DNA from: Tequatrovirus NIC06P2
Strand: one strand, 5' to 3'
DNA: 64,000 bases
Sequence record: OZ035760.1
This document shows positions 23,091 through 59,971 of this stretch, one piece after another; position 1 is the stretch's first letter, and every line of letters starts with the position of its first letter. The position numbers and the translations under genes are program-made. The notes below the pieces were generated by a model that worked only from the letters and a program-made list of their open reading frames with translations, made no database searches and was not told where the DNA came from.

Positions 23091-23927
23091 TTATAAACCA
23101 TTTTCAAATCTCTTTATCATGTTTATATAATTTTCGTCAGGATAACCTAGGCTAACTGCTAACTTTCTAAAATTGACATATTTAGGTTTGTTGTTATTAA
23201 TCCATAATTCTCTAAGCTCTTTTTCATAATTCCATTTAAGTTGATTTCTGCGTGCAATTTTGCTTAAAGTTTTTCCTTTAGCTTTTAAAGCTTTTTCAGA
23301 TGACTGTTTTAATTTTTGAATATTTAAAACTTCTTCTATAGATAAATTATTTTCCTTTGAATATCTTATGCAAAAATCTTTTACTACGGCTATTAGGCAA
23401 TTTTTGTGAGTACCTAAAATTTCTGGATTATTTTCTTCAACTAAAATTCCCCAATATCTTCGATAGCGAGGCATATCCCTTGAAATCCAGTCATTATACC
23501 AAAAATCAAAGTTGGAATACATGAAAGATTTTCTTTTGCGAAGAGTATCTTGGTTTATCCATTGCTCACGTTTATCAGCCCATAACTTAATAGTAAAGTC
23601 TTTCTCTAAGTCAGAAAGCTTCTTAAATTGCGAGCTATTTACTGAGGTCATTCTCTGGAATGCATTCAGCAATCCAAATCTTCCAGTTGAACATAAGAGA
23701 TAGTGAACATATATGTGTTGATATATTGGGAGATATACTCTATTCCAAGGATATGTTTTAAAATCACTGTACTCAGGAAATGCGCATTTAGGAAGTATAT
23801 GATGGGCTTCTGTTTTAGATTTAATGTGAGTGTTTAACTTATACTTATCTATAATTTTTAAATACTCATCTAAAAGTTCCCATTGCGGGAACTTTTCTTT
23901 AAGAGCAGATTTGAAATTAATATCCAT
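23091..23927 (-). CDS. putative HNH homing endonuclease (free-standing)
   Basis: HNH-like motif EAHHILPKCAFPEYSDFKTYPWNRVYLPIYQHIYVH; ATG lies within the last codons of gene 56; C-terminal GYPDENYINMIKRF module shared with ORF 59252..59971. Confidence 0.65.
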   Translation of the reverse strand: MDINFKSALKEKFPQWELLDEYLKIIDKYKLNTHIKSKTEAHHILPKCAFPEYSDFKTYPWNRVYLPIYQHIYVHYLLCSTGRFGLLNAFQRMTSVNSSQFKKLSDLEKDFTIKLWADKREQWINQDTLRKRKSFMYSNFDFWYNDWISRDMPRYRRYWGILVEENNPEILGTHKNCLIAVVKDFCIRYSKENNLSIEEVLNIQKLKQSSEKALKAKGKTLSKIARRNQLKWNYEKELRELWINNNKPKYVNFRKLAVSLGYPDENYINMIKRFENGL

Positions 23928-24435
23928 TATCTTGACGTTCAAAATTATGTTTGTTCTTCAGATAATAAAGTTTAAAGATTTCTTCTGCTGTAAGACCAAG
24001 ACCTTGGAACATGTTCAGAACAAAATGAAGAATATCAATCATTTCGAATTTAATTTCTAACTGATCCTGTGGAGACAAATCAGTAATCAAAGTTTCACGG
24101 CGTTCACCATGCTGCGACTTCCAAGGTTTCCATACAGCAGATGCATCTTTTTCGCCATTGCTCATACCGCCAAGAGAAGTTAGAAGTTCGCGGAATTCAT
24201 CATCAATATAATCTTTCTGATTACGCAGCCAATCAACAACTTCACCTGCGGTAGCCAAATCATCAGGATGACGGTTATATTCAGGTTTATCTTTAGCTAA
24301 ACGAATCTGTAAAGATTTCTGCATATCAAGCATTACCTGCAGCGGGTCTTTTTCATCACCGAGAATATCCCAATATTCATTTTGAGCTTTATCAGCGCCT
24401 TCGATCAGTTGACTACATTCGTTGAAATGTGGCAT
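23917..24435 (-). CDS. 56: dCTPase / dCTP pyrophosphatase
   Basis: 172 aa vs 171 in T4 gp56; MazG-like EExxE region; between soc and 61. Confidence 0.88.
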   Translation of the reverse strand: MPHFNECSQLIEGADKAQNEYWDILGDEKDPLQVMLDMQKSLQIRLAKDKPEYNRHPDDLATAGEVVDWLRNQKDYIDDEFRELLTSLGGMSNGEKDASAVWKPWKSQHGERRETLITDLSPQDQLEIKFEMIDILHFVLNMFQGLGLTAEEIFKLYYLKNKHNFERQDNGY

Positions 24436-24471
24436 GTTATTTTTCCTTTCAATTCATGGGTTAGTAGATTA

Positions 24472-24495
24472 ATTATACAATAAATATATAAAGCA
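24472..24495 (-). promoter_or_regulatory. MotA-dependent middle promoter for gene 56 (MotA box TGCTTTA, 11 nt, TATAAT)
   Basis: reverse complement TTGCTTTATATATTTATTGTATAAT. Confidence 0.55.
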
Positions 24496-24508
24496 ATAAG
24501 GAGGACAT

Positions 24509-24709
24509 ATGGTACAAAAATTAATGGCACTTGTTAATGCCATAAAAGGTAATAAGAAACGTATAGCTTTTACTATTTCTGCTATGGTAGGAATTTTACT
24601 CTGGAACTTTATTCTATCACCTGTTGCAATTGCACATGGTATTAATATTCCAGTAGTTACTCTTGATACATTTGTAGATTTAGCATTTGCTTTAGTTGGG
24701 TTGATTTAA
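24509..24709 (+). CDS. small membrane protein (66 aa) on plus strand
   Basis: strong Shine-Dalgarno AAGGAGGA 4 nt before ATG; MVQKLMALVNAIKGNKKRIAFTISAMVGILLWNFILSPVAIAHGINIPVVTLDTFVDLAFALVGLI; opposite strand to flanking genes. Confidence 0.5.
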   Translation: MVQKLMALVNAIKGNKKRIAFTISAMVGILLWNFILSPVAIAHGINIPVVTLDTFVDLAFALVGLI

Positions 24710-25734
24710 ATCTTAGCATATTTAGATAGCCGCATTTTAGCCATCAACCCCTGTGCAATATTATTTTTCATATATTCCATAATTTGTTCAGGGGTTGCAC
24801 CTTCCTTTCTAATCATATCATTAACATCTTTTGATTTCCAGGGAGATTTATCCCAAAACATAACCCTTTCTCCTGCATCAACTAATTTAGTCATTCGTTT
24901 AATAGTGTCAGGGTGACGAGGTTCATTATCTAAAACCCACACTCGTCTATCTTTAAATGGAACAACTTCTAGGTCTAATTGACCACCCGTAATAGCTATA
25001 CCATTTTCAATAAAAAGTGAATCTATAGGTCCTTCTAGAACATATACATCACCATCTTTAACTCGTTCGACTCCATAGATTTTTGTTGCCTCAGGATAAG
25101 CTTTGATGGTGATATATTTTTGAGGAGCATCTTTCTTTAATGCGCGTCCTTGAAAAGACTCAGCTTTTCCATTAGCATTATAAATTGGAATAACAAGACG
25201 AGGCTCAGAAATTTCCTTTTTATATGTTCCCGGTGCTATGCTATTAACCAATTTAGGCCATTCGGTTGTAAACCAAAGATATTTCCATTTATCCTTTGGA
25301 ATACAACGAGCTTTTACATATTTTATAATTGGATGGTCTTCCGCCAGTTTATCTAATCTAACACATGACGGAAGAGATTTAATTATTTTCTTCTCAGGTT
25401 GTTTAGGAAGTTCTTTAGGTTTTTCTACTGGACGACTTTTACCTTTTTCTTTTCTTATTTCAAAGATATACTCACGATATAAATCAGGTTCAAACTCCTT
25501 TAAATATATTCCGATTGGTGCATGATAGTTACAGTTATAACAATGAATATTTCCTTCATTATTATCACCATAATACCATCCACGAGCTTTATTCTGGTCT
25601 GTTTTTGAATCTCCACAAACAGGGCATCTAAACCGTAATTTAAAAGTTGAACTATTATTTACTTGTGTGAATTTAGGTAAATGAGCTAATGCACGGTATG
25701 CGAACTCATTATCAATCCAAGGTATTGATGACAT
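24706..25734 (-). CDS. 61: DNA primase
   Basis: 342 aa as T4 gp61; N-terminal zinc-binding CPVCGDS...CYNC; TOPRIM-like region. Confidence 0.92.
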   Translation of the reverse strand: MSSIPWIDNEFAYRALAHLPKFTQVNNSSTFKLRFRCPVCGDSKTDQNKARGWYYGDNNEGNIHCYNCNYHAPIGIYLKEFEPDLYREYIFEIRKEKGKSRPVEKPKELPKQPEKKIIKSLPSCVRLDKLAEDHPIIKYVKARCIPKDKWKYLWFTTEWPKLVNSIAPGTYKKEISEPRLVIPIYNANGKAESFQGRALKKDAPQKYITIKAYPEATKIYGVERVKDGDVYVLEGPIDSLFIENGIAITGGQLDLEVVPFKDRRVWVLDNEPRHPDTIKRMTKLVDAGERVMFWDKSPWKSKDVNDMIRKEGATPEQIMEYMKNNIAQGLMAKMRLSKYAKI

Positions 25735-25913
25735 TTTTACTCTTCTTTTTCTTTAGATTCCTCTTTTTTCTTTTTAGGAATCTGTTCAGGACCTTTATTT
25801 ACTACAGCGCCTGACGTTGTTCCAGTAGAGATATTTTCAGGACTACCACCTGAATCTCCAGCGACCATATCTTCTTTGATAAATTCTTTAAACGTTTTCA
25901 TATTAGCCTCTAA

Positions 25914-26207
25914 TTATTCACCTACCACTTCAGCGATGATATTTTTATTATTAAAGTTTTTATCACAATACAGAACGTAATTATACTGCATTACACCACC
26001 AGACTTAAGCTGTTTTTGCACTTCAGCTTTCATTTCAGGACGATCACGCTCAACGATATTCATAATATCTGCTTCAATTTGAGTTTCAACCTCAGTCTGA
26101 TCCGCAGTCATAGACCATTCGCACAAATCTTTATCATAACCTGCCATAGCAGGCTGAGCAGCACAAGAAGCTAAAGCAAAAATTGTAGCAAAGATAAATT
26201 TTTTCAT
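25914..26207 (-). CDS. sp: spackle-like periplasmic protein (signal peptide)
   Basis: 97 aa from ATG with GAGGAG Shine-Dalgarno; MKKFIFATIFALASCAAQPAMAGYD; the ORF track over-extends upstream. Confidence 0.6.
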   Translation of the reverse strand: MKKFIFATIFALASCAAQPAMAGYDKDLCEWSMTADQTEVETQIEADIMNIVERDRPEMKAEVQKQLKSGGVMQYNYVLYCDKNFNNKNIIAEVVGE

Positions 26208-26268
26208 GATTAATCTCCTCAGTAGTTTATGTTTATATAGTATCTCAATTTCCAATAAAAGTAAACAG

Positions 26269-26526
26269 TTATTTTAAAACTTTTGCGTAATCACATGTTA
26301 CAAACTGTTTCTCTAGCTTAACGATCTTACGAAAATACCTTTTACACTGACGAATCTGCCGCTTCGTAGGGCGAACAGCAAACTTAATAAATTCCACTCG
26401 ACCAAATGGAGGACTTTCTTCTGCTGGAATATCTAACGCCAATTCCCACGTATCGGCAATAAGTGCTTTGAATTGCGTATTTTTCCTGACGTTATACGGA
26501 GTAGGTTTAAATAAAACAATATGCAT
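26269..26526 (-). CDS. hypothetical protein (85 aa), 61.x position
   Basis: ATG immediately after dmd stop with GAGGA Shine-Dalgarno; ORF-track start is further upstream. Confidence 0.5.
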   Translation of the reverse strand: MHIVLFKPTPYNVRKNTQFKALIADTWELALDIPAEESPPFGRVEFIKFAVRPTKRQIRQCKRYFRKIVKLEKQFVTCDYAKVLK

Positions 26527-26527
26527 A

Positions 26528-26710
26528 TTATCCTCGGCAATCCACTTCACATACTTTCTTGTCATCAATGAAAGCTTTAACTAATGCTTTATTAACATCA
26601 GCATATTGAGTAGTAGCCCATTGAACGTCATCTTTCATCATTGTGATTTCTTTAGTAAACGTGCTTTCATTCTTAAACCACCCCATAAAAACTACCTTTA
26701 CCAATTCCAT
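26528..26710 (-). CDS. dmd: Dmd antitoxin (inhibitor of RnlA/LsoA toxins)
   Basis: 60 aa, MELVKVVFMGWFKNESTFTKEITMMKDDVQWATTQYADVNKALVKAFIDDKKVCEVDCRG; directly downstream of gene 41, as T4 61.5. Confidence 0.7.
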   Translation of the reverse strand: MELVKVVFMGWFKNESTFTKEITMMKDDVQWATTQYADVNKALVKAFIDDKKVCEVDCRG

Positions 26711-26768
26711 AACAATCTCCCCATTTAACCAACAAGACTACTATACCATAGTCTTGTCAGCTTGTAAA

Positions 26769-28196
26769 CTAAAATTTTAATTCATTCGCCAAAGCATCTA
26801 ACTGAGCTCGAGTCGATTCGTTTCTTTGATAGCGATTCTGTTCAGCCTGAATCTGTTGTGAACCTGCTACCTCACTCACTTCAGTTGGAGTAGAATCTTG
26901 TTCAATTTCTACCCATTTCTGATTTCCTTTTTGAACACCCATCAAAAACTTATTCCACTTATTCTTATCACCATATCGTGATTTGATTTGCTTAATGAGT
27001 TGTTGTTCAGCAGCTGCTAGCTCCTCGGTTTCAATGACCGCAAGCATAAAATCAGCTGTTGCTGGAAGACCAGCAGATTCTGCGATATCACTCATGTTAA
27101 CATCAGAAGAGTCCCAAGCTTGTTTACCAACCTGTGCTGCAGTCCAAAGAACAGTTTCGGTTTCAACAGCCAGAGCACGCAATTCCTCTGCGATAGCTTT
27201 AACAGTTGTGTAACTATTTTCTGAATAAACTCTAATGCGGCAAGATTTACAAATACCTAGATAGTCGACAATAATGATTGTTGGAACAAAATTCTTCTTG
27301 AGCTTCAATTCGTTTAAAAGTGATCGAAATGTATTAGCGTCTGCTCCACCAGTAGGATATTGCTTAACGATTAAACGACCAAGGGTAGATTTCTCACGCC
27401 ATTTTTCCATTTTTCCTTTATATTCAGCGTAAGAAATATGTCCATCATCAATATCGTCAAGAGAAACATCGAGCATGTTAGCATCAATACGTTTAGCACA
27501 GACTTCTTCTGCCATTTCCATGGAGATATAAAGAACGTTATGACCAAGCTGCAAATAATCTGCTGCTAATGAACAAAGTCCTAATGATTTACCAACGTTA
27601 ACGCCAGCCATTAAAACGTTCAGTGTTCCAGTCTCAGCTCCGCCTTTAGTAATTTTGTTTAGAATTCTGAGTTTAAATGGAACCTTACGAGCTTTATTCA
27701 TATAAGATAGCCAACGCGCTTCATAGTCATCCATCCAATCATGACCAACGTAGCTATCAAATGAAATTGATAATGCTTGGCGCATGATGTCAGGAATAGC
27801 ACCTACATCTGGCATTTTCTTATTTCGTTTTTCCGGAGGAAGCTCAGCATTAGTTTGAATTTCGATTATTTTAGACGTAGCATTAAACATCGCCCTTTGC
27901 TGAACATATTTTTCTGTTTCTTTTATTAACCAACTGTGGTCTTCCGGAGAATCAGCCAGTTTTGAAATAAGTGTTTTTACACCAGAATATTCTGTTTCAG
28001 TAAATGAACTATTTTCTAATGCAACATTTAACGCATTAATAGATGGAACGCTATGGTACTCATTAACATGAGATTTAATTAATTTGAATGTATTTTTAGC
28101 TGGACCACTTTCAAAATATTCTGAATCCATATATGGCCAAACTTTTGAAAAATAAGCTTGATCAAATATAAGATGAGAAAGAATAATTTCTACCAC
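26769..28196 (-). CDS. 41: replicative DNA helicase (DnaB-like)
   Basis: 475 aa as T4 gp41; Walker A GVNVGKS. Confidence 0.95.
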   Translation of the reverse strand: MVEIILSHLIFDQAYFSKVWPYMDSEYFESGPAKNTFKLIKSHVNEYHSVPSINALNVALENSSFTETEYSGVKTLISKLADSPEDHSWLIKETEKYVQQRAMFNATSKIIEIQTNAELPPEKRNKKMPDVGAIPDIMRQALSISFDSYVGHDWMDDYEARWLSYMNKARKVPFKLRILNKITKGGAETGTLNVLMAGVNVGKSLGLCSLAADYLQLGHNVLYISMEMAEEVCAKRIDANMLDVSLDDIDDGHISYAEYKGKMEKWREKSTLGRLIVKQYPTGGADANTFRSLLNELKLKKNFVPTIIIVDYLGICKSCRIRVYSENSYTTVKAIAEELRALAVETETVLWTAAQVGKQAWDSSDVNMSDIAESAGLPATADFMLAVIETEELAAAEQQLIKQIKSRYGDKNKWNKFLMGVQKGNQKWVEIEQDSTPTEVSEVAGSQQIQAEQNRYQRNESTRAQLDALANELKF

Positions 28197-28568: not shown

Positions 28569-29724
28569 TTAACTGTTCGAGGTCAGTTTCTAAATCAGCA
28601 GCTGATTTACTTTTACTTTCTGGAGATTTAAATTTTTCAACCTTTGAGTTAATCAATTCATCAACTTCAGCTTCAACAATTTCATTACTATCAATAGCAC
28701 CTAACTGATAAGCACGTTTAATAGCATCTCGGAATGGTTGATGCTTAAATAAAGGACCCCAGAATGTAGTGCAGTTGGTATCTTTTGCACGCCAAGATTT
28801 TTCTTCGCGAATCATCTCACCGGTTTCTTCATCAAGAAATTCACGGGCATACCAGCCATTTTTAGGTTTTACTACAAATCCTAATTCTAGAGCCATATCT
28901 AACAATCCAGAATAAGGATCGATACCACCGTCAAATTTAACATCAATAAAGAATTTACTTTTTTCTTTAACGGTACGAGATTTTTCTACATTTAGAACAA
29001 ATTGATACCCCTGAAGATCAGAACCATCTTTAATTTGACGTTTACCGATAATGAATACAGTATCAGCCGAATACATTACGCCTGTACCGCCTGTCATCAC
29101 GGTTTTACTAAACATTTCAATTGTTTCAATTGTATGGTTAACCGCAACGCACGGAATATTTTTAATGCTAAAATAAGGAGTAACAATACGGAATAATGAC
29201 TTCAGTGATTTAGCACGAGTCATATCTGCCACAGATTTTTCATTCAAGGCATCTTCCGTTTCTTTCTTAGAAGCCATATTACCGATTGAGTCGATGAATA
29301 CAATAACCTTTTCACCACGCTCAATAGTTTCAAGCTGATTCACCATATCAATTTTCAGCTGTTCAACTGATTGGATTGGCGTATGAATTACTCGTTCCGG
29401 GTCAACACCCATAGACTTAAGATAAGCCGGAGTGATACCAAACTCTGAGTCATAGAACAAACAGATAGCATCAGGATACTTATTCAAATAAGCTGCTACC
29501 ATTGTCAGTGACATATTAGATTTAAAATGTTTAGAAGGCCCTGCGAAAATAGTTAAACCAGACTGCATACCACCATCAATCGCACCGCTAATTGCAATAT
29601 TAAGCATTGGAATTTTTGTACGAATTACATCCTTTTCATTAAAGAATTTAGATGTAGTCAGTTCAGCAGTCATTTTAGAAGTGGAAGCTTTAATCAAACG
29701 GGATTTTAAATCTGCAATAGACAT
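28543..29724 (-). CDS. uvsX: UvsX recombinase (RecA-like)
   Basis: 393 aa vs 391 in T4; RecA-fold Walker A GPSKHFKS. Confidence 0.95.
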   Translation of the reverse strand: MSIADLKSRLIKASTSKMTAELTTSKFFNEKDVIRTKIPMLNIAISGAIDGGMQSGLTIFAGPSKHFKSNMSLTMVAAYLNKYPDAICLFYDSEFGITPAYLKSMGVDPERVIHTPIQSVEQLKIDMVNQLETIERGEKVIVFIDSIGNMASKKETEDALNEKSVADMTRAKSLKSLFRIVTPYFSIKNIPCVAVNHTIETIEMFSKTVMTGGTGVMYSADTVFIIGKRQIKDGSDLQGYQFVLNVEKSRTVKEKSKFFIDVKFDGGIDPYSGLLDMALELGFVVKPKNGWYAREFLDEETGEMIREEKSWRAKDTNCTTFWGPLFKHQPFRDAIKRAYQLGAIDSNEIVEAEVDELINSKVEKFKSPESKSKSAADLETDLEQLSDMEEFNE

Positions 29725-29801
29725 TCATTTTTTCCATAGGCATCATTATATTTTCCTCACTGGTTAAAGATAGAGTAATTATAACACAATAAATTTAGGC
29801 A

Positions 29802-30644
29802 TTAATCAACTGCTATTGGATGAATAGCATTAAACTTATGAAATGCTTCTGATTTTTCTTTACGAGAAACACACATGCGAAGAACCTTTAATGGCTCGTC
29901 TTCTTCACCCAACGATTTTCGTTTTTCAATATTAGAAGTTTTCCAACGAGCTTGCTCTGGAAACTCTCTATTGATTTGCTCAAGCGCTCTATTATGTTTA
30001 GAATTACTGCGAATTGAACTGCACCCGCCAGGAGCTTGTGCTTTTCCAGATACAACCAGATATTTGAACAAGGCCAAATGCGGATAACCTTGATTAATTA
30101 AATTGAGAAATGCATACATATCTTCGCATAAATCAATTTTTCCATACCCAATTTGTTCTGTGGTAAGTTTTCCGAGGTCATACCATGTATTCGTGAATCC
30201 GTATGAATTTTCACGATAATTACCCCAAGATGAAGTAATTTTAAAAATTGGTAGACGAGCATGACCGTGATAATACCCGCAATCCATGGCATCTTCAACG
30301 TATTGAATCAATTCATAGAACTGTTCACGAGTTAATTGATTAATTTTATCTACACATCGGCGATCATCTCTTTTTCGCATTGAACTCATACGAATAGTAG
30401 TATCATCGTCAATCATCCAGATTCGTTGACCTGCATACATATCAGTAATTGCTTTACGAGTACCGGCAATTCCGTTTACATCATCAGGAATAGTTACAAT
30501 TTTAGCTTTAGACCCATAGGCATCATAATAAGCTTTTTCTTCATGTTCACGTACTACGATATGAGGTTCATAATCAGTCGGAAACATATCAAGGGCAGAA
30601 ACTGCCCCTACACGTTGATAGCTCGGAATTACGAATTGAATCAT
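29802..30644 (-). CDS. GT-A fold glycosyltransferase, probably beta-glucosyl-HMC-alpha-glucosyltransferase of T2/T6 type
   Basis: 280 aa; VIPSYQR N-terminal motif and DDD (DxD) motif at IWMIDDDT; occupies the T4 beta-gt locus. Confidence 0.6.
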   Translation of the reverse strand: MIQFVIPSYQRVGAVSALDMFPTDYEPHIVVREHEEKAYYDAYGSKAKIVTIPDDVNGIAGTRKAITDMYAGQRIWMIDDDTTIRMSSMRKRDDRRCVDKINQLTREQFYELIQYVEDAMDCGYYHGHARLPIFKITSSWGNYRENSYGFTNTWYDLGKLTTEQIGYGKIDLCEDMYAFLNLINQGYPHLALFKYLVVSGKAQAPGGCSSIRSNSKHNRALEQINREFPEQARWKTSNIEKRKSLGEEDEPLKVLRMCVSRKEKSEAFHKFNAIHPIAVD

Positions 30645-31282
30645 TTAAGTGCCTTACATTTGTCAAAATGGTATCTTGTCATATTTGGCCCACGTCCTTT
30701 TAGTCCGCAATGCGGACATATTTTTTCTATCAAATTATGAGGTTTTCCTTTACGATTTTTAGACATCGTTTCTTTAATTATTTTAGCTTTTTCTACGCCA
30801 AAAATTTCTTCATAAGTTTTACCAGAATTTTCCTTGGCTCGATTTATAATTCCATATGCCTGCTCATTTTTACCATACATTGGATTACCTTCGCCTTTCA
30901 TTCTTTTAGAATGATCAGGACGCTTGATTCCACGAAAGGCATTTCCGCACTTATATCTTTCTTCTGGAGATAGTTTTTTACCGTACATTCCATTTAATTT
31001 GCCTGGAAAACTTCCTCCCCATGCTTCATTCTTTAAATTATATGAATCCGGACAATTAGCAGCATCTAAACAAGTTAAAATAATTTCTTCAACCTGTCTA
31101 AACATTGGTCCTTCATATAATATTTCTTTATTAAAGAATTTTATTCCATATTTCTTTTTAGCATGTTGCCAAACTACACCCGAACCATCATAATTCGGGT
31201 TGTGACCATCATGACTTCCTATATACCACTTTTTAGTTTTAGGATGTTTATACTTATAAACATGTGGCACATTTACTTCCAT
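30641..31282 (-). CDS. GIY-YIG homing endonuclease (Seg-like)
   Basis: VYKYKHPKTKKWYIGSHDG GIY-YIG motif; C-terminal zinc finger CPHCGLKGRGPNMTRYHFDKC; start overlaps stop of gene 42, stop overlaps start of glycosyltransferase. Confidence 0.7.
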   Translation of the reverse strand: MEVNVPHVYKYKHPKTKKWYIGSHDGHNPNYDGSGVVWQHAKKKYGIKFFNKEILYEGPMFRQVEEIILTCLDAANCPDSYNLKNEAWGGSFPGKLNGMYGKKLSPEERYKCGNAFRGIKRPDHSKRMKGEGNPMYGKNEQAYGIINRAKENSGKTYEEIFGVEKAKIIKETMSKNRKGKPHNLIEKICPHCGLKGRGPNMTRYHFDKCKALK

Positions 31283-39338: not shown

Positions 39339-40052
39339 ATGAATTATAAACTAATTTACGAAAAGTTAATCTCTAATGCTAAATCTCGAAAACTTGATTG
39401 CTATACTGAATCTCATCACATTATACCACGCTGTTTAAATGGCAGCGATGATGCTTCAAACTTAGTAGATTTAACACCAGAAGAGCACTATGTAGCTCAT
39501 CAACTTTTAGTAAAAATTTATCCTTCTGAACCAAAATTAGTCTATGCTGCTAACATGATGACAGTTTCCACAAAATACGCTAAACGCAACAATAAAACTT
39601 TCGGTTGGATTCGTCGTAAACTCTGGGAAATAGAAAAGAATAAAGAATTCTCCCAGGAGACACGAAAGAAAATGTCTGATGCAGTAGCTAATAAAGCAAG
39701 ACTAACTTGTCCTCATTGCGGTAAGTCTGGATTAAGCGGGAATATGAATCGTTGGCATTTTGATAACTGCCCAAATCACCCTAATCCTAAAGTTAGACCA
39801 CCAATGTCTAAAGAACACAGAAATAATATCTCAAACGGGCTTAAAGCAATCGTTCTTGAAGAAACATCCTGCGAATTCTGCGGAATGATAGGCAAGAAAT
39901 GCGTTATCGCAGCGCATAGAAATTTCTGCAAGAAAAATCCAAATGGACGCAAGAAAACTGAAAAGACTGGTACTTGCGTCCATTGTGGTAAAGTTACCAC
40001 TTTCGGAAATTTATCAAGGTGGCATAATGATAACTGTAAGCACAAACATTAA
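39339..40052 (+). CDS. HNH homing endonuclease with three C-terminal zinc-finger-like repeats, plus strand
   Basis: HNH motif TESHHIIPRCLNGSDDASNLVDLTPEEHYVAHQ; repeats CPHCGKSGLSGNMNRWHFDNC, CEFCGMIGKKCVIAAHRNFC, CVHCGKVTTFGNLSRWHNDNC; opposite strand to all neighbours; stop overlaps stop of gene 46. Confidence 0.75.
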   Translation: MNYKLIYEKLISNAKSRKLDCYTESHHIIPRCLNGSDDASNLVDLTPEEHYVAHQLLVKIYPSEPKLVYAANMMTVSTKYAKRNNKTFGWIRRKLWEIEKNKEFSQETRKKMSDAVANKARLTCPHCGKSGLSGNMNRWHFDNCPNHPNPKVRPPMSKEHRNNISNGLKAIVLEETSCEFCGMIGKKCVIAAHRNFCKKNPNGRKKTEKTGTCVHCGKVTTFGNLSRWHNDNCKHKH

Positions 40053-43378: not shown

Positions 43379-44579
43379 ATTTTGTAATAATGTCAAACTG
43401 TTCTTTAAAGCAGAAGCTTGAATCTTGATGCTGATACAAAAATTCATATGCTTTTTCTCGCTCACGGTCATAAAGAGCTCGGTCAGATGACAGTTCTTTA
43501 ATACGCTCGAATGTTGATTCCATGTCATTTTCATCAAACCAAACGATACCGCTATCATGCGAGGTCAAAGGAGTATTATCAACACGGAATTTTAAATTTT
43601 CTCCAGTAGATTTCCAAAATACCGGAATTGTTCCACATGCACCAAGCTCGAGGTGAGTATATTCTAAAGAGCGCTGTAGATATTTTTTATCCAACTTACT
43701 CAACTGATAACCAAATCCAGATTTACTCATACGTTCAAGCATTTCGCTATTTACATAACGATCGAGAATTTGCGTTGGTAAATTAGGAGCAATTTTAATT
43801 TGGTCTACTTGATGAAGACGATAATACTCGTATGGAATTCCTTTTTCTTTAATAGGAATGAACGCTGGAGAACGTTCCAGACCTTCCATAATAGTACTTA
43901 GTCCTGCAGGTTTAAGATGTTTTTCGTGAAAATCAAACATCTGATAAAAACCTTTCCATGTAGTCGTACGACCAATCCAACGGTTGATATTCATGTTAAT
44001 TTCAGAAACATCTTTCCAGTAGGTTGATCGAACCTTCGCAATATCCATAGGAGGCTGAAAGTTGTATACGGTCGGTGCTTCTTCAATATCATCAAACAGA
44101 GAAACTGTTTCTGGATACCATTCTTTCATCAGAACTTTATTAAAATCGCCATTATCAGAATGGCTAAAAATAACATCAGCTCGACGAACAGTTTCTTCTA
44201 ATCCCAAATTTCGACGCAAAGAAAGAGAAGAATGGTCATGTTGATAAACTACAACACGAACCGAAGGTTTAATGTTATCAATAATTTTTTTATAGTTATT
44301 AATAGTGTCTTCTTCAACTGAAGTAGCAGGAACGGAATTGATAATTAGAATATCACAATCATTTACCAGCTTAAGTGTTTTATCGTATTCTTTTGCCAAT
44401 AAAACCGGAATTGAAAATGATTTATAATCATGCGCGCAATTACGGGTAAATGATTTATCTTTAGCATAAACCAAAGTTACTTCATGACCATTTTTAATAA
44501 ACCAATCACGTTGCTCAAGAGAAAATTTAGTTACGCCGCAACCTTCAAGACCTCGAGCCATAAAAATGCATACTTTCAT
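43377..44579 (-). CDS. agt: alpha-glucosyltransferase (HMC DNA)
   Basis: 400 aa as T4 alpha-gt; MKVCIFMARGLEGCGVTKFSLEQRDWFIKNGHEVTLVYAKDKSF closely matches T4 sequence from memory. Confidence 0.9.
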   Translation of the reverse strand: MKVCIFMARGLEGCGVTKFSLEQRDWFIKNGHEVTLVYAKDKSFTRNCAHDYKSFSIPVLLAKEYDKTLKLVNDCDILIINSVPATSVEEDTINNYKKIIDNIKPSVRVVVYQHDHSSLSLRRNLGLEETVRRADVIFSHSDNGDFNKVLMKEWYPETVSLFDDIEEAPTVYNFQPPMDIAKVRSTYWKDVSEINMNINRWIGRTTTWKGFYQMFDFHEKHLKPAGLSTIMEGLERSPAFIPIKEKGIPYEYYRLHQVDQIKIAPNLPTQILDRYVNSEMLERMSKSGFGYQLSKLDKKYLQRSLEYTHLELGACGTIPVFWKSTGENLKFRVDNTPLTSHDSGIVWFDENDMESTFERIKELSSDRALYDREREKAYEFLYQHQDSSFCFKEQFDIITK

Positions 44580-44603
44580 TTAATATCCTCATTGTTTTGG
44601 TTT

Positions 44604-48915: not shown

Positions 48916-49386
48916 TTAATCATGTTTCCACACCCCATCGGTATTTGACCAAAGTCGCTGATTATCTGATCCTCGCCACAGCTTTTTAGTCGGAAGATTT
49001 TTCTCATACTTCCCATCAATAATAACATCAACATATTTAAGCATTTCTAGTTGTTTAATATCTTCAAACTTATATCCTGTCCACAACCAAATGCTTTTAT
49101 TGGGATAAAGATTTTTAATAGTTTGAACCACAGAGTGAATCACGTCTCTGTTATCAGGATAAAGAGGGTCACCTCCGGTTATAGTCAATCCTTCTATATA
49201 ATCATTATTCAAACATTCAATTAATTGTTCTAGTGTTTCACCAGTGAATGGAATACCATTTCTAGCATTCCATGTTGATTTATTATAACACCCTTCACAT
49301 TTATGCAAACAACCTGTAACGAAAAGAACGACCCTGCATCCAGGGCCATTCACAAAATCACAAGGATAAAATCTATCATAATTCAT
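48916..49386 (-). CDS. nrdG: anaerobic ribonucleotide reductase activating protein (radical SAM)
   Basis: 156 aa as T4 NrdG; CxxxCxxC cluster CLHKCEGC. Confidence 0.92.
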   Translation of the reverse strand: MNYDRFYPCDFVNGPGCRVVLFVTGCLHKCEGCYNKSTWNARNGIPFTGETLEQLIECLNNDYIEGLTITGGDPLYPDNRDVIHSVVQTIKNLYPNKSIWLWTGYKFEDIKQLEMLKYVDVIIDGKYEKNLPTKKLWRGSDNQRLWSNTDGVWKHD

Positions 49387-51200
49387 TGATGCTTAACCCT
49401 ATGCATGATTTCTTTATTTTTACCGAGATTAAATCCGCGTTCGTTCGGATTTCCCAAATAGCCGCATGTTCTTCTTATTGTGTTCATCTTTTTAGGATCA
49501 GTTTCTCCACAAATAGAACAAACAAATCCATTTTCAGTAGGAGTCATTTCATGGGTACTTCCGCATGTAAAACATTTATCTACTGGCATATTAACACCAA
49601 AATAATCTAAATGTTGTGCAGCATAATCCCATACGGCCTCAAGACCCTTTAAGTTATTTTTCATATCAGGAAGTTCAACATAAGAAATGTGACCACCTGT
49701 CGCAATGAAATGATATGGCGCTTCACGAGAAATCTTTTCAAACGGAGTAATATTTTCTTCTACTGAAACATGGAAACTGTTAGTGTACCAACCTTTATCG
49801 GTAACATCTTTTACGCTTCCATATTTTTCTGTATCGAGTTTACAGAAGCGATAACAAAGGTTTTCAGCAGGAGTCGAATATAAACTAAAAGCAAATCCAG
49901 TTCTTTCAGTCCACTGTTTAAGATGAGCATTCATTTTAGTTAAAATTTCTTGTCCAATATCACGACCGACAAGAATATTCAATTCGTGAATACCAATGTA
50001 TCCTAGGGACACTGAACTTCTACCGTTTTTAAATAACTCAATTATGTCGTCATCAGGTTTAAGACGAACCCCGAATGCACCTTCTTGGTAAAGAATAGGA
50101 GCAACAGTAGCTTTAACTCCTTTTAAGGAACTAATTCTACACATCAAAGCTTCAAAACACAAATCCATTCGTTCATTGAATAATTCAACAAATTTCTGTT
50201 CATTGAACTGTGTTCCAATATAAGAATCTAACGCGATGCGAGGAAGATTCAGTGTTACAACACCAAGATTATTACGTCCATCAAGAATTTCATTACCAGT
50301 CGAATCTTTCCATACGCTCAAGAAACTACGGCAACCCATTGGAGAAACAGGAACAGATGAACCAGTGATAGCTTTATTGTTCTTAGCTGAAATAATATCA
50401 GGATACATCCTTTTGCTTGCACACTCTAGAGCAAGCTGCTTAATATCATAGTTCGGATCGTCTTTATAAAGATTAACACCTTCTTCAACGAACATAACAA
50501 GCTTAGGGAAAATAGGAGTTATCCCATCACGACCAAGACCTTTAATACGATTTTTCAGAATTGCTTTCTGAATCATTCGTTCAGTCCAGTCAGTTCCCGT
50601 ACCAAATGTAATTGTTACAAAAGGAGTCTGTCCGTTTGAACTAAAGAGAGTATTTACTTCATATTCATAAGCTTGGAATGCATCGTATACATCTTTTTCT
50701 GTTTTAGATTGAGCATAATTCAACGCATCAGCGATTTGCCATTTTTCTGCATCCTCAATATGTTTTGCATAGGTGCGTTTAACATAAGGAGAAAGTACTT
50801 TATCGACATTAGCAAATGTAGTTCCGCCATATTGGTGAGAAGCAACCTGTGCAGTAATTTGTGCCATAATTGCAGTAGCAACACCGATTGATTTAGGAGT
50901 TTCAATCTGTGCATTACCAAGCTTAAATCCATTCTCAAGCATTCCTTTTAAATCTACTAAACAACAATTAGTAAATGGAAGAGCAGGGGAATAATCAATA
51001 TCATGGAAATGAATAATTCCGCTTTCATGCGCTTTCATAATAAAAGACGGGACCATATTTTTGGCAATGTGTTTAGACACAATACCAGCCATAAGGTCCC
51101 GTTGAGTTGGAAAAACACGAGAATCTTTATTAGCATTCTCGTTTAAAAGGTCTTTATTAGTTTTATGAATCAATCCTTCAATTTCTTTTTCAATTGTCAT
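49383..51200 (-). CDS. nrdD: anaerobic ribonucleoside-triphosphate reductase, uninterrupted
   Basis: 605 aa single ORF; C-terminal glycyl radical region and zinc ribbon CFTCGSTHEMTPTENGFVCSICGE. Confidence 0.95.
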   Translation of the reverse strand: MTIEKEIEGLIHKTNKDLLNENANKDSRVFPTQRDLMAGIVSKHIAKNMVPSFIMKAHESGIIHFHDIDYSPALPFTNCCLVDLKGMLENGFKLGNAQIETPKSIGVATAIMAQITAQVASHQYGGTTFANVDKVLSPYVKRTYAKHIEDAEKWQIADALNYAQSKTEKDVYDAFQAYEYEVNTLFSSNGQTPFVTITFGTGTDWTERMIQKAILKNRIKGLGRDGITPIFPKLVMFVEEGVNLYKDDPNYDIKQLALECASKRMYPDIISAKNNKAITGSSVPVSPMGCRSFLSVWKDSTGNEILDGRNNLGVVTLNLPRIALDSYIGTQFNEQKFVELFNERMDLCFEALMCRISSLKGVKATVAPILYQEGAFGVRLKPDDDIIELFKNGRSSVSLGYIGIHELNILVGRDIGQEILTKMNAHLKQWTERTGFAFSLYSTPAENLCYRFCKLDTEKYGSVKDVTDKGWYTNSFHVSVEENITPFEKISREAPYHFIATGGHISYVELPDMKNNLKGLEAVWDYAAQHLDYFGVNMPVDKCFTCGSTHEMTPTENGFVCSICGETDPKKMNTIRRTCGYLGNPNERGFNLGKNKEIMHRVKHQ

Positions 51201-55829: not shown

Positions 55830-55856
55830 ATTAATCTCCTCAGTAGAAAGTAAGAA

Positions 55857-55887: not shown

Positions 55888-56912
55888 TAGTTCAGTGCAT
55901 TTAGCGCATTGTTCAGTTTAGAACGTTGCTTTGTCAGATTTTGAACCCTTGACTGAGCTTGTTCTAACGCCTTTTCAGCTTCTAGCACTTCATTAGTTGC
56001 TTTAACGAGTTCATCATCTACTGCCTTAAGAGACTTCTCAATCGCATCTGCATGCCATTTTTCAACAGGTTTAAGACTCGGATTTTCAACAGGAAGAAAA
56101 TTCACTTTATTAAGTTTACATGCATCTATATTGCTTGAACTATGCATCCAAAATTTAGGATCGTTTGATAAGTAATTGGATAAATTTAAATTTAAGTTAT
56201 CTTGTACTTCTTGCTTTTTCTCTTGCGGGACTTCGTCCTTTCTCAAAAAATCATATTTAAATGAAACGATCATATCAAGTTCATATGATGTTGTATCTAA
56301 CTTAAATCGTTCAAAACGAGGTAAAATCTTAGATTGAACAGCAGCAACAACATCCATATACTTAAATGCTTCTGTCAGCTGTGATTTAAGACATTCACAA
56401 ATTGAAAGAGAATTTTTAGTATTAGGCTTAAAGCTAATTCGTGCAGTTCTATTATTTTCTTTTAACGGTCTTACTTCCATCTGAAGAGTATAACCATCAA
56501 ATTTCAGATTCTTTAAGTTAATATCAGAACCTTTTAATCGACTAGCAGTAGACAAAATTTGCTTTAATTGTTTACGGAATAGAGCAATAAATCTCCATTC
56601 AAGACGATAATGATTTGGATTAAAAAATCCTGTTGATAAATCGACCTTACTCTGACCAACGCCTTGAACAAATAAAGGATTTTTATAATCAATAGTTTTA
56701 CAGAAATCGGTGAGCTGCTCACGAGCAGTCATTTGAGTAATATACCCCGCTTTACTAAAATGACGTAACCATTCACTGCTATTCATATACTTAAAGTGAA
56801 TATCACGATTAACTTTATCAGGGTCTAAATTATTTTGGCACAAAAATGTCATAACATTACGGGTATAGCTGGCATTACGAACCATATCTTCAATTTGAGA
56901 ACGAGTTTTCAT
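55887..56912 (-). CDS. hypothetical protein with C-terminal coiled coil (341 aa), paralog family member
   Basis: N-terminus MKTRSQIEDM; C-terminal heptad-rich tail. Confidence 0.6.
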   Translation of the reverse strand: MKTRSQIEDMVRNASYTRNVMTFLCQNNLDPDKVNRDIHFKYMNSSEWLRHFSKAGYITQMTAREQLTDFCKTIDYKNPLFVQGVGQSKVDLSTGFFNPNHYRLEWRFIALFRKQLKQILSTASRLKGSDINLKNLKFDGYTLQMEVRPLKENNRTARISFKPNTKNSLSICECLKSQLTEAFKYMDVVAAVQSKILPRFERFKLDTTSYELDMIVSFKYDFLRKDEVPQEKKQEVQDNLNLNLSNYLSNDPKFWMHSSSNIDACKLNKVNFLPVENPSLKPVEKWHADAIEKSLKAVDDELVKATNEVLEAEKALEQAQSRVQNLTKQRSKLNNALNALN

Positions 56913-56920
56913 GGTGTTCC

Positions 56921-57823
56921 TTAAGATTTAAGTAAATCAATAATTTTAATTAATTTTTCACGTTCAGATTTAGCTTTACTACTCAATCCAGATAGTCTGA
57001 AAATTTCATCGTCATATTGTTGAATAGAAATATTCAGCTCTTCAATTTGCTTATTAAAATAATCAATTTGTTCAGAATGTTTTTCGTTACTACGAACTGG
57101 TACAGGTTTTGTAGGCAATTTAGTTGAACTGGATTCATCCGGGCGATAAATTAAAATACAACTTGAACCAATTGGACATTTTGCACCAGATGAATATTCT
57201 AATGTTCCAGCTTCTTTTAAAATTTCAAAAGCTAAACAGAGATGATGACCCATATTGGCATAATCTGTAGAGTGAGCTCTGACGTAATAATCATCTCCAC
57301 GAGTGCTAAATTTAAAGCATTTAAGGTCTTCTGTATTATTAGTTTTAAAAATCATTTGTTTATCTAGACCTTTAGCTAATCGAGCGCCTAATGCTAATAA
57401 TCGTCGTTGATTTTCCCACAAATCTGCGATCATTTGGTCAAATGATAATTTCGGCATTAGTCGACCATAAAGGTCGTATCCTTTATTATAATTGCGAAGG
57501 ATTTCACTCGCGTTAATGCGAGACAACGCTCCAATTTTATTAAGGGCTTTCATGATGCGATTAGATAAAAGCATTCCAGATCCGTTTGTTCGTTGTAAAT
57601 GTTTTTCTAATCCAAATCCAATATCAACTTTAAACTTATCTAAAATTTCGGCGTGAACATCTTTATCAATAACATTTAAATTTAGTACTGGGTTAAATTT
57701 ATGAAAAAATTTATCTGACTCGTCGCGTTGAAGTACAGTCCATTCATTTGATTTTTTATTAACTAAAGATTTAATTACTGCATTGACATTATTAATTACT
57801 ACTGACATATTTTCCTCACTCAA
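56921..57823 (-). CDS. hypothetical protein with C-terminal coiled coil (300 aa)
   Basis: ORF in track; C-terminal tail EIFRLSGLSSKAKSEREKLIKIIDLLKS. Confidence 0.55.
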   Translation of the reverse strand: MSEENMSVVINNVNAVIKSLVNKKSNEWTVLQRDESDKFFHKFNPVLNLNVIDKDVHAEILDKFKVDIGFGLEKHLQRTNGSGMLLSNRIMKALNKIGALSRINASEILRNYNKGYDLYGRLMPKLSFDQMIADLWENQRRLLALGARLAKGLDKQMIFKTNNTEDLKCFKFSTRGDDYYVRAHSTDYANMGHHLCLAFEILKEAGTLEYSSGAKCPIGSSCILIYRPDESSSTKLPTKPVPVRSNEKHSEQIDYFNKQIEELNISIQQYDDEIFRLSGLSSKAKSEREKLIKIIDLLKS

Positions 57824-58224
57824 TTTTCAATTTTACTAAATACACAGAATATGATGGAAAAGACTATATAAGCACCGCATACAGATTGAACTAATACCAT
57901 TCCAAAGAACCAAATAATATTATCAAACCATGTCTGTTTTACGTCGAAAGGACGTAAACTTACAGTAATATTATCACCTTTTTCTATTGAAGAATACATC
58001 TCTGGCGAAATATATTCGCTAAATCTATAACCGTCTTTGAGTTCATATACGGCAATAAACGATAAACTAGACCCCTTTCCTTGAGTTCCTGTAAGGGTAT
58101 TAACTACAGTAACATCATAATCTTTATAATGCATATAATCATTAATTGCGTAATAACCATATGCAATTACTATACATAAACAACATATCAATAAATTCAA
58201 TCTTTTAATTATCAACTGTTTCAT
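57820..58224 (-). CDS. membrane protein (134 aa) with N- and C-terminal hydrophobic helices
   Basis: LNLLICCLCIVIAYGYYAI and IIWFFGMVLVQSVCGAYIVFSIIFCVF. Confidence 0.5.
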   Translation of the reverse strand: MKQLIIKRLNLLICCLCIVIAYGYYAINDYMHYKDYDVTVVNTLTGTQGKGSSLSFIAVYELKDGYRFSEYISPEMYSSIEKGDNITVSLRPFDVKQTWFDNIIWFFGMVLVQSVCGAYIVFSIIFCVFSKIEN

Positions 58225-58279
58225 AATAATCTCAATTAAAAGGGCTTAGAACCATTATACCATCCTTGGTATAAAGCGG

Positions 58280-58807
58280 TTATGCGAGTACCGTCTTTAA
58301 CCGTTCTTCAAACTTCCGAAGAGTATTTTGGCGTTCAGCTCTTTGCTTTTTGTAAGTTTCAATACGCTCTGAAATGAGAGTGTATCGTTCATTTACTGAT
58401 TCTTTCATAAAATCAGGAATTTCACGAGAAGCTTTAATCTCGTCAAATTTATCAATAACAGCTTGCTCTTCAGCAATTAAGTTATCATACATCAAAATAT
58501 CTTTCTTGATGAACCCAATATCTTCTTGAGTTACACGAGATAATTTAGATGCTTTATCCTTTTTGTACTGTTCGTTAGTATCACGAGACCAGTGTAATGT
58601 ACGATTTTTATTCGTATTCTTGTAAATTTCTACAATACCAATCTCATCAATAATAACGATCCAATTCCAACGGGATTTGTAAATTTGTCCTCCATCAACC
58701 GTGATTTCACCTCCGATTGAGATGTCATTAAAGAACTTGCTTTGCGCTTCAGATTTAAATTTACCATCGTTGTAATTTACCAGGTTGAAAATATCTTTAG
58801 CGTTCAT
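58280..58807 (-). CDS. hypothetical protein (175 aa)
   Basis: ATG (MNAKDIF) downstream of promoter 58835..58864; ORF-track version reads through the promoter. Confidence 0.55.
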   Translation of the reverse strand: MNAKDIFNLVNYNDGKFKSEAQSKFFNDISIGGEITVDGGQIYKSRWNWIVIIDEIGIVEIYKNTNKNRTLHWSRDTNEQYKKDKASKLSRVTQEDIGFIKKDILMYDNLIAEEQAVIDKFDEIKASREIPDFMKESVNERYTLISERIETYKKQRAERQNTLRKFEERLKTVLA

Positions 58808-58834
58808 TTTGTGTTCTCCGTAGTTGATAGTTGT

Positions 58835-58864
58835 ATAGTACCACAGAGGAATGGTCTTGTAAAC
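58835..58864 (-). promoter_or_regulatory. T4-type early promoter
   Basis: reverse complement GGTTTACAAGACCATTCCTCTGTGGTACTATACAACTATCAACTACGGAGAACACAAAATG. Confidence 0.6.
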
Positions 58865-58866
58865 CA

Positions 58867-59181
58867 CTAAAAGAAACTTCTTTCACAATTTTTTCCACTG
58901 AACCAAGCGCTCACTGCTTTCTTAGTCTCAGGAGCAGTGTTATCCATAAACCATTCAAAGGCAGCCTTTTTATGATTCTGGAGGGCTTCTCGGGCTTTAA
59001 TCTGCTCACGGTCTATTAACACTAACATATGAGCCTTTCTTGTCACCATGGGCTTCTTATGATTTTTTGAATATTCCCAATCATTTGTCCATCGCATCGT
59101 TGTTGCGAATTGAAGTACAGCTTCTTTAATTTTAGTTTCGTAAATTTCACGAGCCTTTGAGTATAACATCATTACCTCCAT
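58867..59181 (-). CDS. hypothetical protein (104 aa)
   Basis: ORF in track. Confidence 0.5.
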   Translation of the reverse strand: MEVMMLYSKAREIYETKIKEAVLQFATTMRWTNDWEYSKNHKKPMVTRKAHMLVLIDREQIKAREALQNHKKAAFEWFMDNTAPETKKAVSAWFSGKNCERSFF

Positions 59182-59251
59182 TTACCAGTTTAATTCTAGT
59201 CATCTTTTTAATGGCAGTCCATATAATCTATTTCTGAACTGCCTTTTTGTC

Positions 59252-59971
59252 TTAGGATTCTTCTAAATGTCTTTTCTGAAAAGTTGATACCATACTACGA
59301 TACGGTTCATTTGGATATCCGTGTTTTATAGCTTCCTTTGTAAATTTTCTCCATCCATATTTAGTTTCTTTCCAAAGCTCGAATAATTCATCTTCATACT
59401 GCCATATAGTTAAATGAGAACGCTTTGCAGCTTTAATTCCATTAATATGCTTTTCTTTTACTGTAGGATTGCTTAGTTTCTTTTTAATAATATTACTAAC
59501 TTTTCTAACAAAAACTGGGTCCTTATATCGTTGCGAAGTTTTTATTGAAGTGTTTAATTTAGCTTCCGGCGTGGATGTGACCTCTTTCATCTTTTTCTTC
59601 ATATGCTGTATATGATTAGGATTTTTCCATAAATTTATAGAATGCTTTTTGCATTTTATCCTAGTTTCATCTGCAACCTTTCCTCCTTCACCCCCGTATG
59701 ACAGGTTAACACAGTTTTTTCCATATTTCAATTTACCTGCCATGATATATAATATTTCAGCTTGTACCATTTTATCATAATTATCAAAAACTTCTAAAAC
59801 CGTTTTTGATAATATGTGGTCATTTGACACTTTTACACGTTCTATATAATTTCCACTACCAACATACGAATCATTGATGTTATTAGTTATATGTCGACCA
59901 TAATAGTATTTCTTAATACCTGTCTTTAAATTTAATATTTCAGTTTTATAGATAGTAAAATATTTTTTCAT
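59252..59971 (-). CDS. putative GIY-YIG family endonuclease (Seg-like)
   Basis: N-terminal FTIYKTEILNLKTGIKKYYYGRH ... YVGSG ... NLSYGG resembles the GIY-YIG core; basic repeat-rich C-terminus; C-terminal GYPNEPYRSMVSTF module shared with HNH ORF 23091..23927. Confidence 0.5.
   Translation of the reverse strand: MKKYFTIYKTEILNLKTGIKKYYYGRHITNNINDSYVGSGNYIERVKVSNDHILSKTVLEVFDNYDKMVQAEILYIMAGKLKYGKNCVNLSYGGEGGKVADETRIKCKKHSINLWKNPNHIQHMKKKMKEVTSTPEAKLNTSIKTSQRYKDPVFVRKVSNIIKKKLSNPTVKEKHINGIKAAKRSHLTIWQYEDELFELWKETKYGWRKFTKEAIKHGYPNEPYRSMVSTFQKRHLEES

Follow-up and report, generated by a model that had tools for sequence, protein, structure and literature searches.

Endonuclease genes of two unrelated catalytic families occur in one stretch of a T4-like phage genome, which raises the question of whether their products carry the same C-terminal modules and, if so, how these modules came to be shared. 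The window, meaning the whole 64-kb stretch of DNA that was analyzed, belongs to a Tequatrovirus and carries four free-standing homing endonuclease genes and no more, of which HNH-1 and HNH-2 are Mob-like HNH genes and GIY-1 and GIY-2 are Seg-like GIY-YIG genes. A sequence-only reading had placed the four ORFs where they are indeed found and had proposed that HNH-2 and GIY-1 share a zinc finger, here called module A, and that HNH-1 and GIY-2 share another ending, here called module B. The following sections describe the genes, the two modules, their probable role and their origin.

Four free-standing endonuclease genes

HNH-1 is on the minus strand (23091..23942) and occupies exactly the soc/gene-56 slot that in T4 holds segF. 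Its start codon is likely the ATG at 23927, giving 278 aa like its orthologues; the mechanical ORF reaches a TTG at 23942 (283 aa), and the residue numbers of HNH-1 follow this longer version. GIY-1 (30641..31282, minus strand, 213 aa) is flanked by a beta-glucosyl-HMC-alpha-glucosyltransferase gene and gene 42, so that segA and beta-gt of T4 are replaced here by GIY-1 and the glucosyltransferase gene. HNH-2, which is MobE-like (39339..40052, plus strand, 237 aa), is flanked by genes 45.2 and 46 and lies on the strand opposite to these neighbors, and GIY-2 (59252..59971, minus strand, 239 aa) sits between homologues of NrdC.9 and NrdC.10; the insertion points of both correspond to short gaps in T4. 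Synteny thus presents the four as probably mobile genes that are inserted or substituted, relative to T4, in the gaps between conserved genes. When all six frames of the window were scanned with HMMs, no endonuclease gene turned up beyond these four. The mobD slot (62544-63507), where the window differs from T4, was considered as the site of a fifth, and it holds two unrelated small ORFs.

The earlier assignment of the proteins to two unrelated catalytic classes holds. HNH-1 and HNH-2 match PHROGs family phrog_655 (E=1e-33 and 1.5e-68), and both contain the HH..N..H residues, with the motif intact in the catalytic domain of HNH-1 (23634..23942, minus strand). In BLASTP searches HNH-1 matches T4 MobD (E=1.8e-9), and HNH-2 matches T4 MobE, MobB, MobD, MobC and MobA (E from 8e-32, which is the full-length match to MobE, to 2e-14). 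GIY-1 and GIY-2 match phrog_314 (E=2e-31 and 2e-30) and carry the GIY-YIG motifs VYKY..WYIG and IYKT..YYYG; their BLASTP matches are T4 SegC, SegB, SegA, SegD and SegE (E from 1e-12 to 1e-5), with GIY-2 giving E=8e-12 against SegB and 1.8e-7 against SegA. The Pfam GIY-YIG model reported neither GIY-1 nor GIY-2, and the Pfam HNH model left HNH-2 under its cutoff (17 versus 21.4 bits) and did not match HNH-1. For GIY-1, whose catalytic domain spans 31007..31282 (minus strand), an AF2 model with a pLDDT of 88 has as its top Foldseek matches the I-TevI catalytic domain (1MK0/1LN0, probability 1.00, TM(target) 0.63), and the predicted catalytic fold is the I-TevI-like alpha/beta fold.

Module A, a zinc finger of the I-TevIII type

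The shared CPHCG...HFD.C finger of HNH-2 and GIY-1 is present, and only the spacing of eight to nine residues given for it was wrong: the motif reads CPHCG-x6-NM-x-R-x-HFD-x-C, that is, CX2CX12HX3C. In a six-frame translation of the window, this motif and that of module B occur solely in the ORFs for which they were described. GIY-1 has one finger (30656..30718, minus strand), modeled as a beta-hairpin followed by a helix, a topology compatible with a zinc finger. HNH-2 has three, which had been overlooked, all on the plus strand: finger 1 (CPHCGKSGLSGNMNRWHFDNC, 39708..39770), a degenerate finger 2 (CEFCGMIGKKCVIAAHRNFC, CX2CX11HX3C, 39870..39929; profile E=6e-4) and finger 3 (CVHCGKVTTFGNLSRWHNDNC, 39975..40037). 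Finger 2 of HNH-2 is thus the one with an 11-residue spacer; the finger of GIY-1 and the other two of HNH-2 have 12 residues there.

The similarity between the two proteins covers the finger and the linker upstream of it (110 aa, E=5e-9 by BLASTP), and finger 3 of HNH-2 matches GIY-1 separately (E=5e-4). Both proteins also resemble I-TevIII, the HNH endonuclease of the phage RB3 nrdB intron (HNH-2, E=5e-7 and 3.5e-5 by BLASTP against T4 I-TevIII; GIY-1, z=6.3 in a shuffle test), and a module A profile matches both I-TevIII fingers. The ligand spacing and the conserved non-ligand residues, a nearly invariant P, M and F across the module A family, are the same in I-TevIII and in the C-terminus of T4 MobE. 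Module A is therefore the I-TevIII/MobE-type CX2CX12-13HX3C finger (C2HC, beta-beta-alpha). As in HNH-2, the I-TevIII fingers are in tandem, although I-TevIII has two and HNH-2 has three, with the 11-residue spacer in the middle one. Pfam returned for module A only generic zinc-ribbon/C2HC noise, and no curated family, NUMOD1, NUMOD3 and NUMOD4 included, matched it.

Between the finger and the catalytic domain of GIY-1 there is an extended linker with a helical segment (30749..31000, minus strand) that is NUMOD3-like, with a NUMOD3 E-value of 0.0027 that falls below the cutoff. In bits, PF07460 (NUMOD3) scores 18.0 for GIY-1 and 12.6 for HNH-2 against a gathering cutoff of 20.4, and many GIY-1 homologues have a precomputed PF07460 match. 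The GIY-1 linker resembles those of HNH-2 and of T4 MobE (E=1.6e-5 against MobE 97-227). Putative NUMOD3-like repeats occur in GIY-1, HNH-2 and their homologues, whereas modules A and B match none of Pfam NUMOD1, NUMOD3 and NUMOD4.

Module B, a predicted three-helix domain

The GYP(x)E(x)Y(xx)M(xxx)F ending described for HNH-1 and GIY-2 is there in both, inside a larger similarity of about 80 aa (31/80 identical, 39%; E=9e-9 by BLASTP). In HNH-1 the module extends over 23100..23333 (minus strand; profile E=5e-29) with the pattern W.YE.EL..LW...KP....F.KLA...GYP.E.Y..M...F, and in GIY-2 over 59267..59506 (minus strand; profile E=8e-26); W, P, Y and F are conserved in the family. The same module is found at the C-termini of three T4 proteins, the GIY-YIG enzymes SegA (E=1e-16) and SegF (E=3e-6) and the HNH enzyme MobD (E=4e-25), in copies merely 25-35% identical to those of the window, and HNH-1 also matches the SegA tail by BLASTP (E=2.7e-8).

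The structure predicted for module B is a three-helix, HTH-like domain of about 50-80 aa, with a confident three-helix core in HNH-1 (23097-23240, pLDDT>90). Among its best-superposing structural neighbors, almost every one is a DNA-binding HTH domain (Myb-like, homeodomain, Fur, ArgR, transposase HTH), although the fold matches are weak. A profile search of the PDB gave nothing (best E=0.45), and 50 module B members had no match to Pfam I-TevI_DNA-bd/NUMOD1 or other curated families. That module B might be a divergent I-TevI-type HTH or NUMOD1-IENR1-like tail, as in I-TevI, SegC, SegD, MobB and MobC, was rejected on these grounds together with an hhalign probability of 1.2%. A word-indexed search found nothing with an 83-aa fragment of module B and just 3 proteins with full-length HNH-1. 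An exhaustive HMMER search gathered the homologues: 95 cluster representatives among 1.84 billion carry the module, at times in tandem copies, so that it is confined to few of the homing endonucleases of phages.

In the accessible literature, the original NUMOD paper excepted, module B is not named, and Mob C-termini have been treated as "specific to each protein" (PMC2790892). Module B (W.Y.EL..LW...KP....F..A...GYPD..Y..M...F, with a core of about 50 residues) might be a DNA-binding domain of the NUMOD class that had so far escaped cataloguing, with no counterpart in Pfam, NCBIfam or the PDB, and one that has passed many times between the two nuclease families, T4 SegA, SegF and MobD included; this is a tentative proposal.

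Role of the modules

By analogy with I-TevIII, module A probably binds DNA and contributes target specificity; its counterparts in that enzyme bind zinc, one ion per finger, and are themselves needed for DNA binding, which is reduced by mutation of either finger (Robbins et al. 2007, PMC1865063). For module B, the HTH-like neighbors of the model suggest the same two functions. Both modules have the terminal position that in I-TevI is held by a DNA-binding domain made of a minor-groove helix and an HTH (Pfam PF20987), presumably with the same role, although this domain is homologous to neither of them.

The modules could instead be homologous and shuffled and yet serve dimerization, linker organization or distance measurement, regulation or protein-protein interaction. 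[quoted passage not shown] Against this stand the I-TevIII mutants, the predominance of DNA-binding domains among the best-superposing neighbors of module B, the shared terminal position, and the natural interchange of the finger with a DNA-binding tail of the I-TevI type, all of which make a role other than target recognition unlikely.

Distribution and origin of the shared modules

The interchange is seen in close relatives of GIY-1 (55–68% identical), which have the C-terminal DNA-binding domain of the I-TevI type instead of the finger; this is a direct natural swap. In public data, module A is carried by 42 GIY-YIG and 23 HNH proteins, and module B by 41 GIY-YIG and 35 HNH proteins. Occurrences of module A number about 264 in all. 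T4 has the module A finger on HNH proteins only, whereas here and in about 60 database homologues the finger ends a GIY-YIG protein. Twelve module A carriers were unclassified and were considered as a possible third nuclease family; 7 of them were scanned with Pfam, of which three (L066, L008 and L032) matched the GIY-YIG model and four (L046, L083, L010 and L082) matched no nuclease domain. The modules are homologous across the two families and widespread on both, with a discrete natural swap and with gene presence or absence relative to T4. The swaps presumably arose by recombination between endonuclease genes.

The two members of each pair lie within one 64-kb window, and T4-type infections are highly recombinogenic (PMC2988022), as would suit a recent exchange in the lineage of this genome, in which HNH-1 and GIY-2, and likewise HNH-2 and GIY-1, swapped or copied tails. 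The identities within the pairs, however, are merely about 39% for module B and about 26-43% for module A. After its own orthologues, the module of HNH-1 is nearest to GIY-YIG proteins from elsewhere (0.37-0.41) and that of GIY-2 to other GIY-YIG proteins, the fingers of GIY-1 and HNH-2 are closer to proteins of viral contigs than to each other, and T4 has the same module types on different gene sets. Recent exchange is thus very improbable, and since the pairs within the genome are not mutual nearest relatives, there is nothing special about this genome. A separate candidate, the in situ swap of a catalytic domain at the slot shared by SegF and HNH-1, which would have left closely related tails, was rejected (z=1.5).

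The similarities themselves are significant, as the alignments and 2000 composition-preserving shuffles for each comparison agree: z is 11.6 for HNH-1/GIY-2 (Gumbel P~2e-7) and 11.2 for HNH-2/GIY-1 (P~3e-7), in contrast to background values for the crossed pairs HNH-1 x GIY-1 (z=0.9) and HNH-2 x GIY-2 (z=1.8). Lysine-rich proteins might come to share brief zinc-binding or helical motifs by chance or convergence: the motifs span 14-21 aa, zinc chemistry limits the Cys/His positions, the four proteins all have a basic, biased composition, and Pfam sees only generic noise in module A. At the sequence level, however, this explanation is effectively refuted by these scores, by similarity over 80-110 aa far past the motifs, by non-ligand residues conserved family-wide in both modules, and by profiles that recover the modules in T4 proteins left out of profile building. 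The central claim of the sequence-only reading, that the same C-terminal modules are attached to unrelated catalytic domains within one genome, is consequently supported by BLASTP, shuffles and profiles alike.

A modular design and its implications

The four genes are very probably explained by the "beads-on-a-string" arrangement described by Edgell, Gibb and Belfort in 2010 (PMC2988022), with repeated re-pairing of its parts. Each protein would begin with a nuclease domain of one of the two families, continue through a basic linker resembling NUMOD3 and finish in at least one small module by which the enzyme would be kept on its long target sequence. Since these modules are autonomous units on flexible linkers, recombination between endonuclease genes during phage co-infection would have joined them time and again to one nuclease family or the other, and this would account for the presence of the same kinds of module on both families in many phages, this one included.

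For phage homing endonucleases, modular DNA-binding regions of the NUMOD type go back to Sitbon and Pietrokovski in 2003 (cited in PMC3943268, PMC1564403 and PMC3239194); as here, these are small autonomous modules C-terminal to GIY-YIG or HNH nucleases, with the same types across families. T5orf172 and other phage homing endonucleases likewise have repetitive modular DNA-binding regions that are exchanged between enzymes, and the C-terminal zinc fingers of the Mob class were noted in the same study (Barth et al. 2023, PMC10448857), although the T5orf172 enzymes have another nuclease family and other modules (CapR-type CxxC...CxC fingers, AP2, RepA_N). The module sharing in this phage is thus real but ordinary, as the shuffling of DNA-binding domains in homing endonucleases is already published and is visible in T4 itself; the sole mildly new point is that module B seems uncatalogued.

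The significance is mostly one of annotation: the four endonucleases of this phage follow an established modular design, fingers of the I-TevIII type are common beyond HNH proteins, on GIY-YIG enzymes as well, and exact module boundaries would aid the annotation of genes whose usual label is "homing endonuclease" or "hypothetical protein". In the GIY-1 family, for example, a natural breakpoint lies at residues ~174-185; such breakpoints show where modules can be exchanged and are useful for chimeric nuclease engineering. Module B is perhaps worth follow-up, being present in three textbook T4 proteins and yet lacking a curated family or a solved structure. If the proposal made for it is true, module B would offer DNA recognition in a small unit that is portable by nature and deserves characterization, comparable to the I-TevI domain for engineered nucleases.

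Homing Endonuclease Genes and Their Shared C-Terminal Modules

The window comes from a T4-like phage (Tequatrovirus) whose closest relatives are Yersinia phage fPS-2 and Escherichia phage ACG-C40 (96-97% identity over the 10 kb tested), and its gene order is collinear with that of T4 between rIIA and the MobD.1 region. When the ORFs of all six frames were scanned with HMMs, only four homing endonuclease genes were found, all at the positions indicated by the sequence-only reading. HNH-1 (23091..23942, minus strand) and HNH-2 (39339..40052, plus strand) belong to the Mob-like HNH family (PHROGs phrog_655), while GIY-1 (30641..31282) and GIY-2 (59252..59971), both on the minus strand, belong to the Seg-like GIY-YIG family (phrog_314).

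That reading had proposed that the same C-terminal modules are attached to unrelated catalytic domains within this genome, on the basis of two motifs which, in the six-frame translation, are confined to the four endonuclease ORFs. The zinc finger motif (module A) is present in HNH-2 and GIY-1, with a corrected spacing: the eight or nine residues originally counted are six, giving CPHCG-x6-NM-x-R-x-HFD-x-C, i.e., CX2CX12HX3C. HNH-2 carries three such fingers, the middle one degenerate. In both pairs the similarity reaches far past the short motifs, as HNH-1 and GIY-2 share 31 of 80 residues over module B (E=9e-9) and the HNH-2/GIY-1 alignment spans 110 residues of linker and finger (E=5e-9). 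When Smith-Waterman scores were compared with 2000 composition-preserving shuffles, the two sharing pairs gave z=11.6 and 11.2 (Gumbel P~2-3e-7), and the crossed pairs, HNH-1 with GIY-1 and HNH-2 with GIY-2, gave background scores only. The motif matches are therefore statistically significant, which confirms the sharing of C-terminal modules across the HNH and GIY-YIG enzymes of the window and supports the proposal.

Counterparts in T4

The four proteins were set against the complete T4 complement of 15 homing endonucleases, taken from MT984581. Module A corresponds to the finger of T4 MobE, of which HNH-2 is a full-length relative (E=8e-32), and to both fingers of T4 I-TevIII; its carriers are thus GIY-1 on the GIY-YIG side and HNH-2, MobE, and I-TevIII on the HNH side. 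Module B corresponds to the C-terminus of T4 SegA (E=2.7e-8 against HNH-1) and of MobD, with a weaker counterpart in SegF, and a profile built without any T4 sequence matches SegA (1e-16), SegF (3e-6), and MobD (4e-25). It is therefore carried by the GIY-YIG enzymes GIY-2, SegA, and SegF and by the HNH enzymes HNH-1 and MobD. The I-TevI-type tail (module C) occurs in I-TevI, I-TevII, SegC, and SegD and in the HNH enzymes MobB and MobC, a purely descriptive assignment, as its profile was made from these same T4 tails. Thus, the cross-family sharing already exists within canonical T4. Upstream of the real module B copy, the profile matches residues 128-173 of HNH-1 (23424-23561) a second time, very weakly (E=0.01); this match could be due to chance or to a tandem copy that has decayed.

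Structure and Function of Module A

The CX2CX12-13HX3C fingers of I-TevIII each bind zinc, and mutation of either lowers DNA binding (Robbins et al., PMC1865063). The full-length AlphaFold model of GIY-1 (49 homologues, pLDDT 88) predicts four units: a GIY-YIG domain (residues 1-90), then a NUMOD3-like stretch in extended form and a helical segment, and finally a β-hairpin followed by a helix (186-208), this last unit with the predicted topology of a classical ββα finger. [quoted passage not shown] Module A had no specific match in any Pfam family or PDB sequence.

Mobility Relative to T4

In the soc/56 slot, T4 segF is exactly replaced by HNH-1. The adjacent gene 56 (23917-24477) is 77% identical to that of T4, with flanks of 95-98% on both sides. 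Gene 56 is the reported target of SegF, so this divergence could be of the kind often seen beside the target of a homing endonuclease. The T4 DNA adenine methyltransferase gene dam, between genes 56 and 61, is missing, about 900 bp of T4 being reduced to about 20 bp (24477-24498), and tblastn found no match to T4 Dam in the window.

The segA and beta-gt genes of T4 are replaced by GIY-1 and a T2/T6-type glucosyltransferase gene. This cassette (29712-31281) encodes a 280-aa β-glucosyl-HMC-α-glucosyltransferase, named from related records, and GIY-1 flanks the transferase gene on the side opposite to that of segA in T4. HNH-2 and GIY-2 are clean insertions at short intergenic gaps of T4. HNH-2 is on the plus strand amid the replication genes 45, rpbA, 45.2, and 46, all on the minus strand, and its stop codon (40050-40052) overlaps the convergent stop codon of gene 46 (40049-40051).

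The window lacks the T4 genes mobA, mobB, mobC, and mobD as well as the nrdD intron that bears I-TevII. The absences are clean at 10413-10478 (mobA with the gene 60/39 split region), 44570-44595 (mobB), 49366-49386 (mobC), and 50662-50665 (the intron). The T4 mobD slot (62544-63507) holds two unrelated small ORFs, one membrane-protein-like (62540..63001, 153 aa) and one of 173 aa (63004..63525), and the HMM scans detected no nuclease domain in either. Presence/absence differences of this kind are typical of free-standing homing endonuclease genes.

Probable Module Shuffling across the Nuclease Families

Published work already covers the "beads-on-a-string" modularity of the two phage nuclease families, the concept of NUMODs, and the explicit proposal that GIY-YIG and H-N-H enzymes evolve through shuffling of their catalytic and DNA-binding domains (PMC2988022, PMC3943268, PMC1564403, PMC1865063, PMC10448857). 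Module shuffling is therefore already known and not particular to the NIC06P2 genome. In the accessible literature, no named description turned up for module B or for GIY-YIG enzymes with a finger of the I-TevIII type, and one paper terms the Mob C-termini "specific to each protein" (PMC2790892). The remaining novelty is module B, which appears to have no curated family or structure.

Module A occurs at 264 places in IMG/VR, and the 77 ORFs from the best 80 of these loci comprise 42 GIY-YIG, 23 HNH, and 12 unclassified proteins, several of the last being divergent GIY-YIG enzymes by Pfam. One 387-aa ORF (L046:1072-2235, IMG/VR contig 3300047325_000130) has four module A-type fingers and no recognizable GIY-YIG or HNH domain; in this protein and in the likewise unclassified ORFs of loci L083 and L010, the nuclease domain may be divergent or of another type. 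Module B had 95 matches among 1.84 billion cluster representatives which, together with two HNH-1 relatives, give 97 proteins (41 GIY-YIG, 35 HNH, and 21 mostly short fragments). Two to three tandem copies are present in P0004, P0007, P0021, P0053, and other proteins. Several matches are short proteins (52-137 aa) with little besides module B; these proteins could be fragments at the ends of contigs or DNA-binding modules that have been domesticated and stand alone.

The nearest neighbor of a module is on the same nuclease class in 68 of 93 cases for module B and 53 of 66 for module A, against random expectations of 47 and 34, and the modules thus partly co-segregate with their nuclease. The closest relative lies on the other family for 25 (B) and 13 (A) modules, which implies repeated exchange between GIY-YIG and HNH enzymes. 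The clearest case of shuffling is a direct swap among the GIY-1 homologues: the finger is at the C-terminal end in 59 of 70, and seven are 55-68% identical to GIY-1 up to residues ~174-185, after which similarity falls to zero and an I-TevI-type tail stands in the finger's place. The tail of P0128 scores z=13.7 against T4 I-TevI and matches Pfam I-TevI_DNA-bd at E=2e-4, below the cutoff. In the nearest-neighbor comparison of modules, neither HNH-1/GIY-2 nor HNH-2/GIY-1 were mutual nearest relatives; therefore, their co-occurrence in one genome reflects the design common to the whole family rather than something that happened locally.
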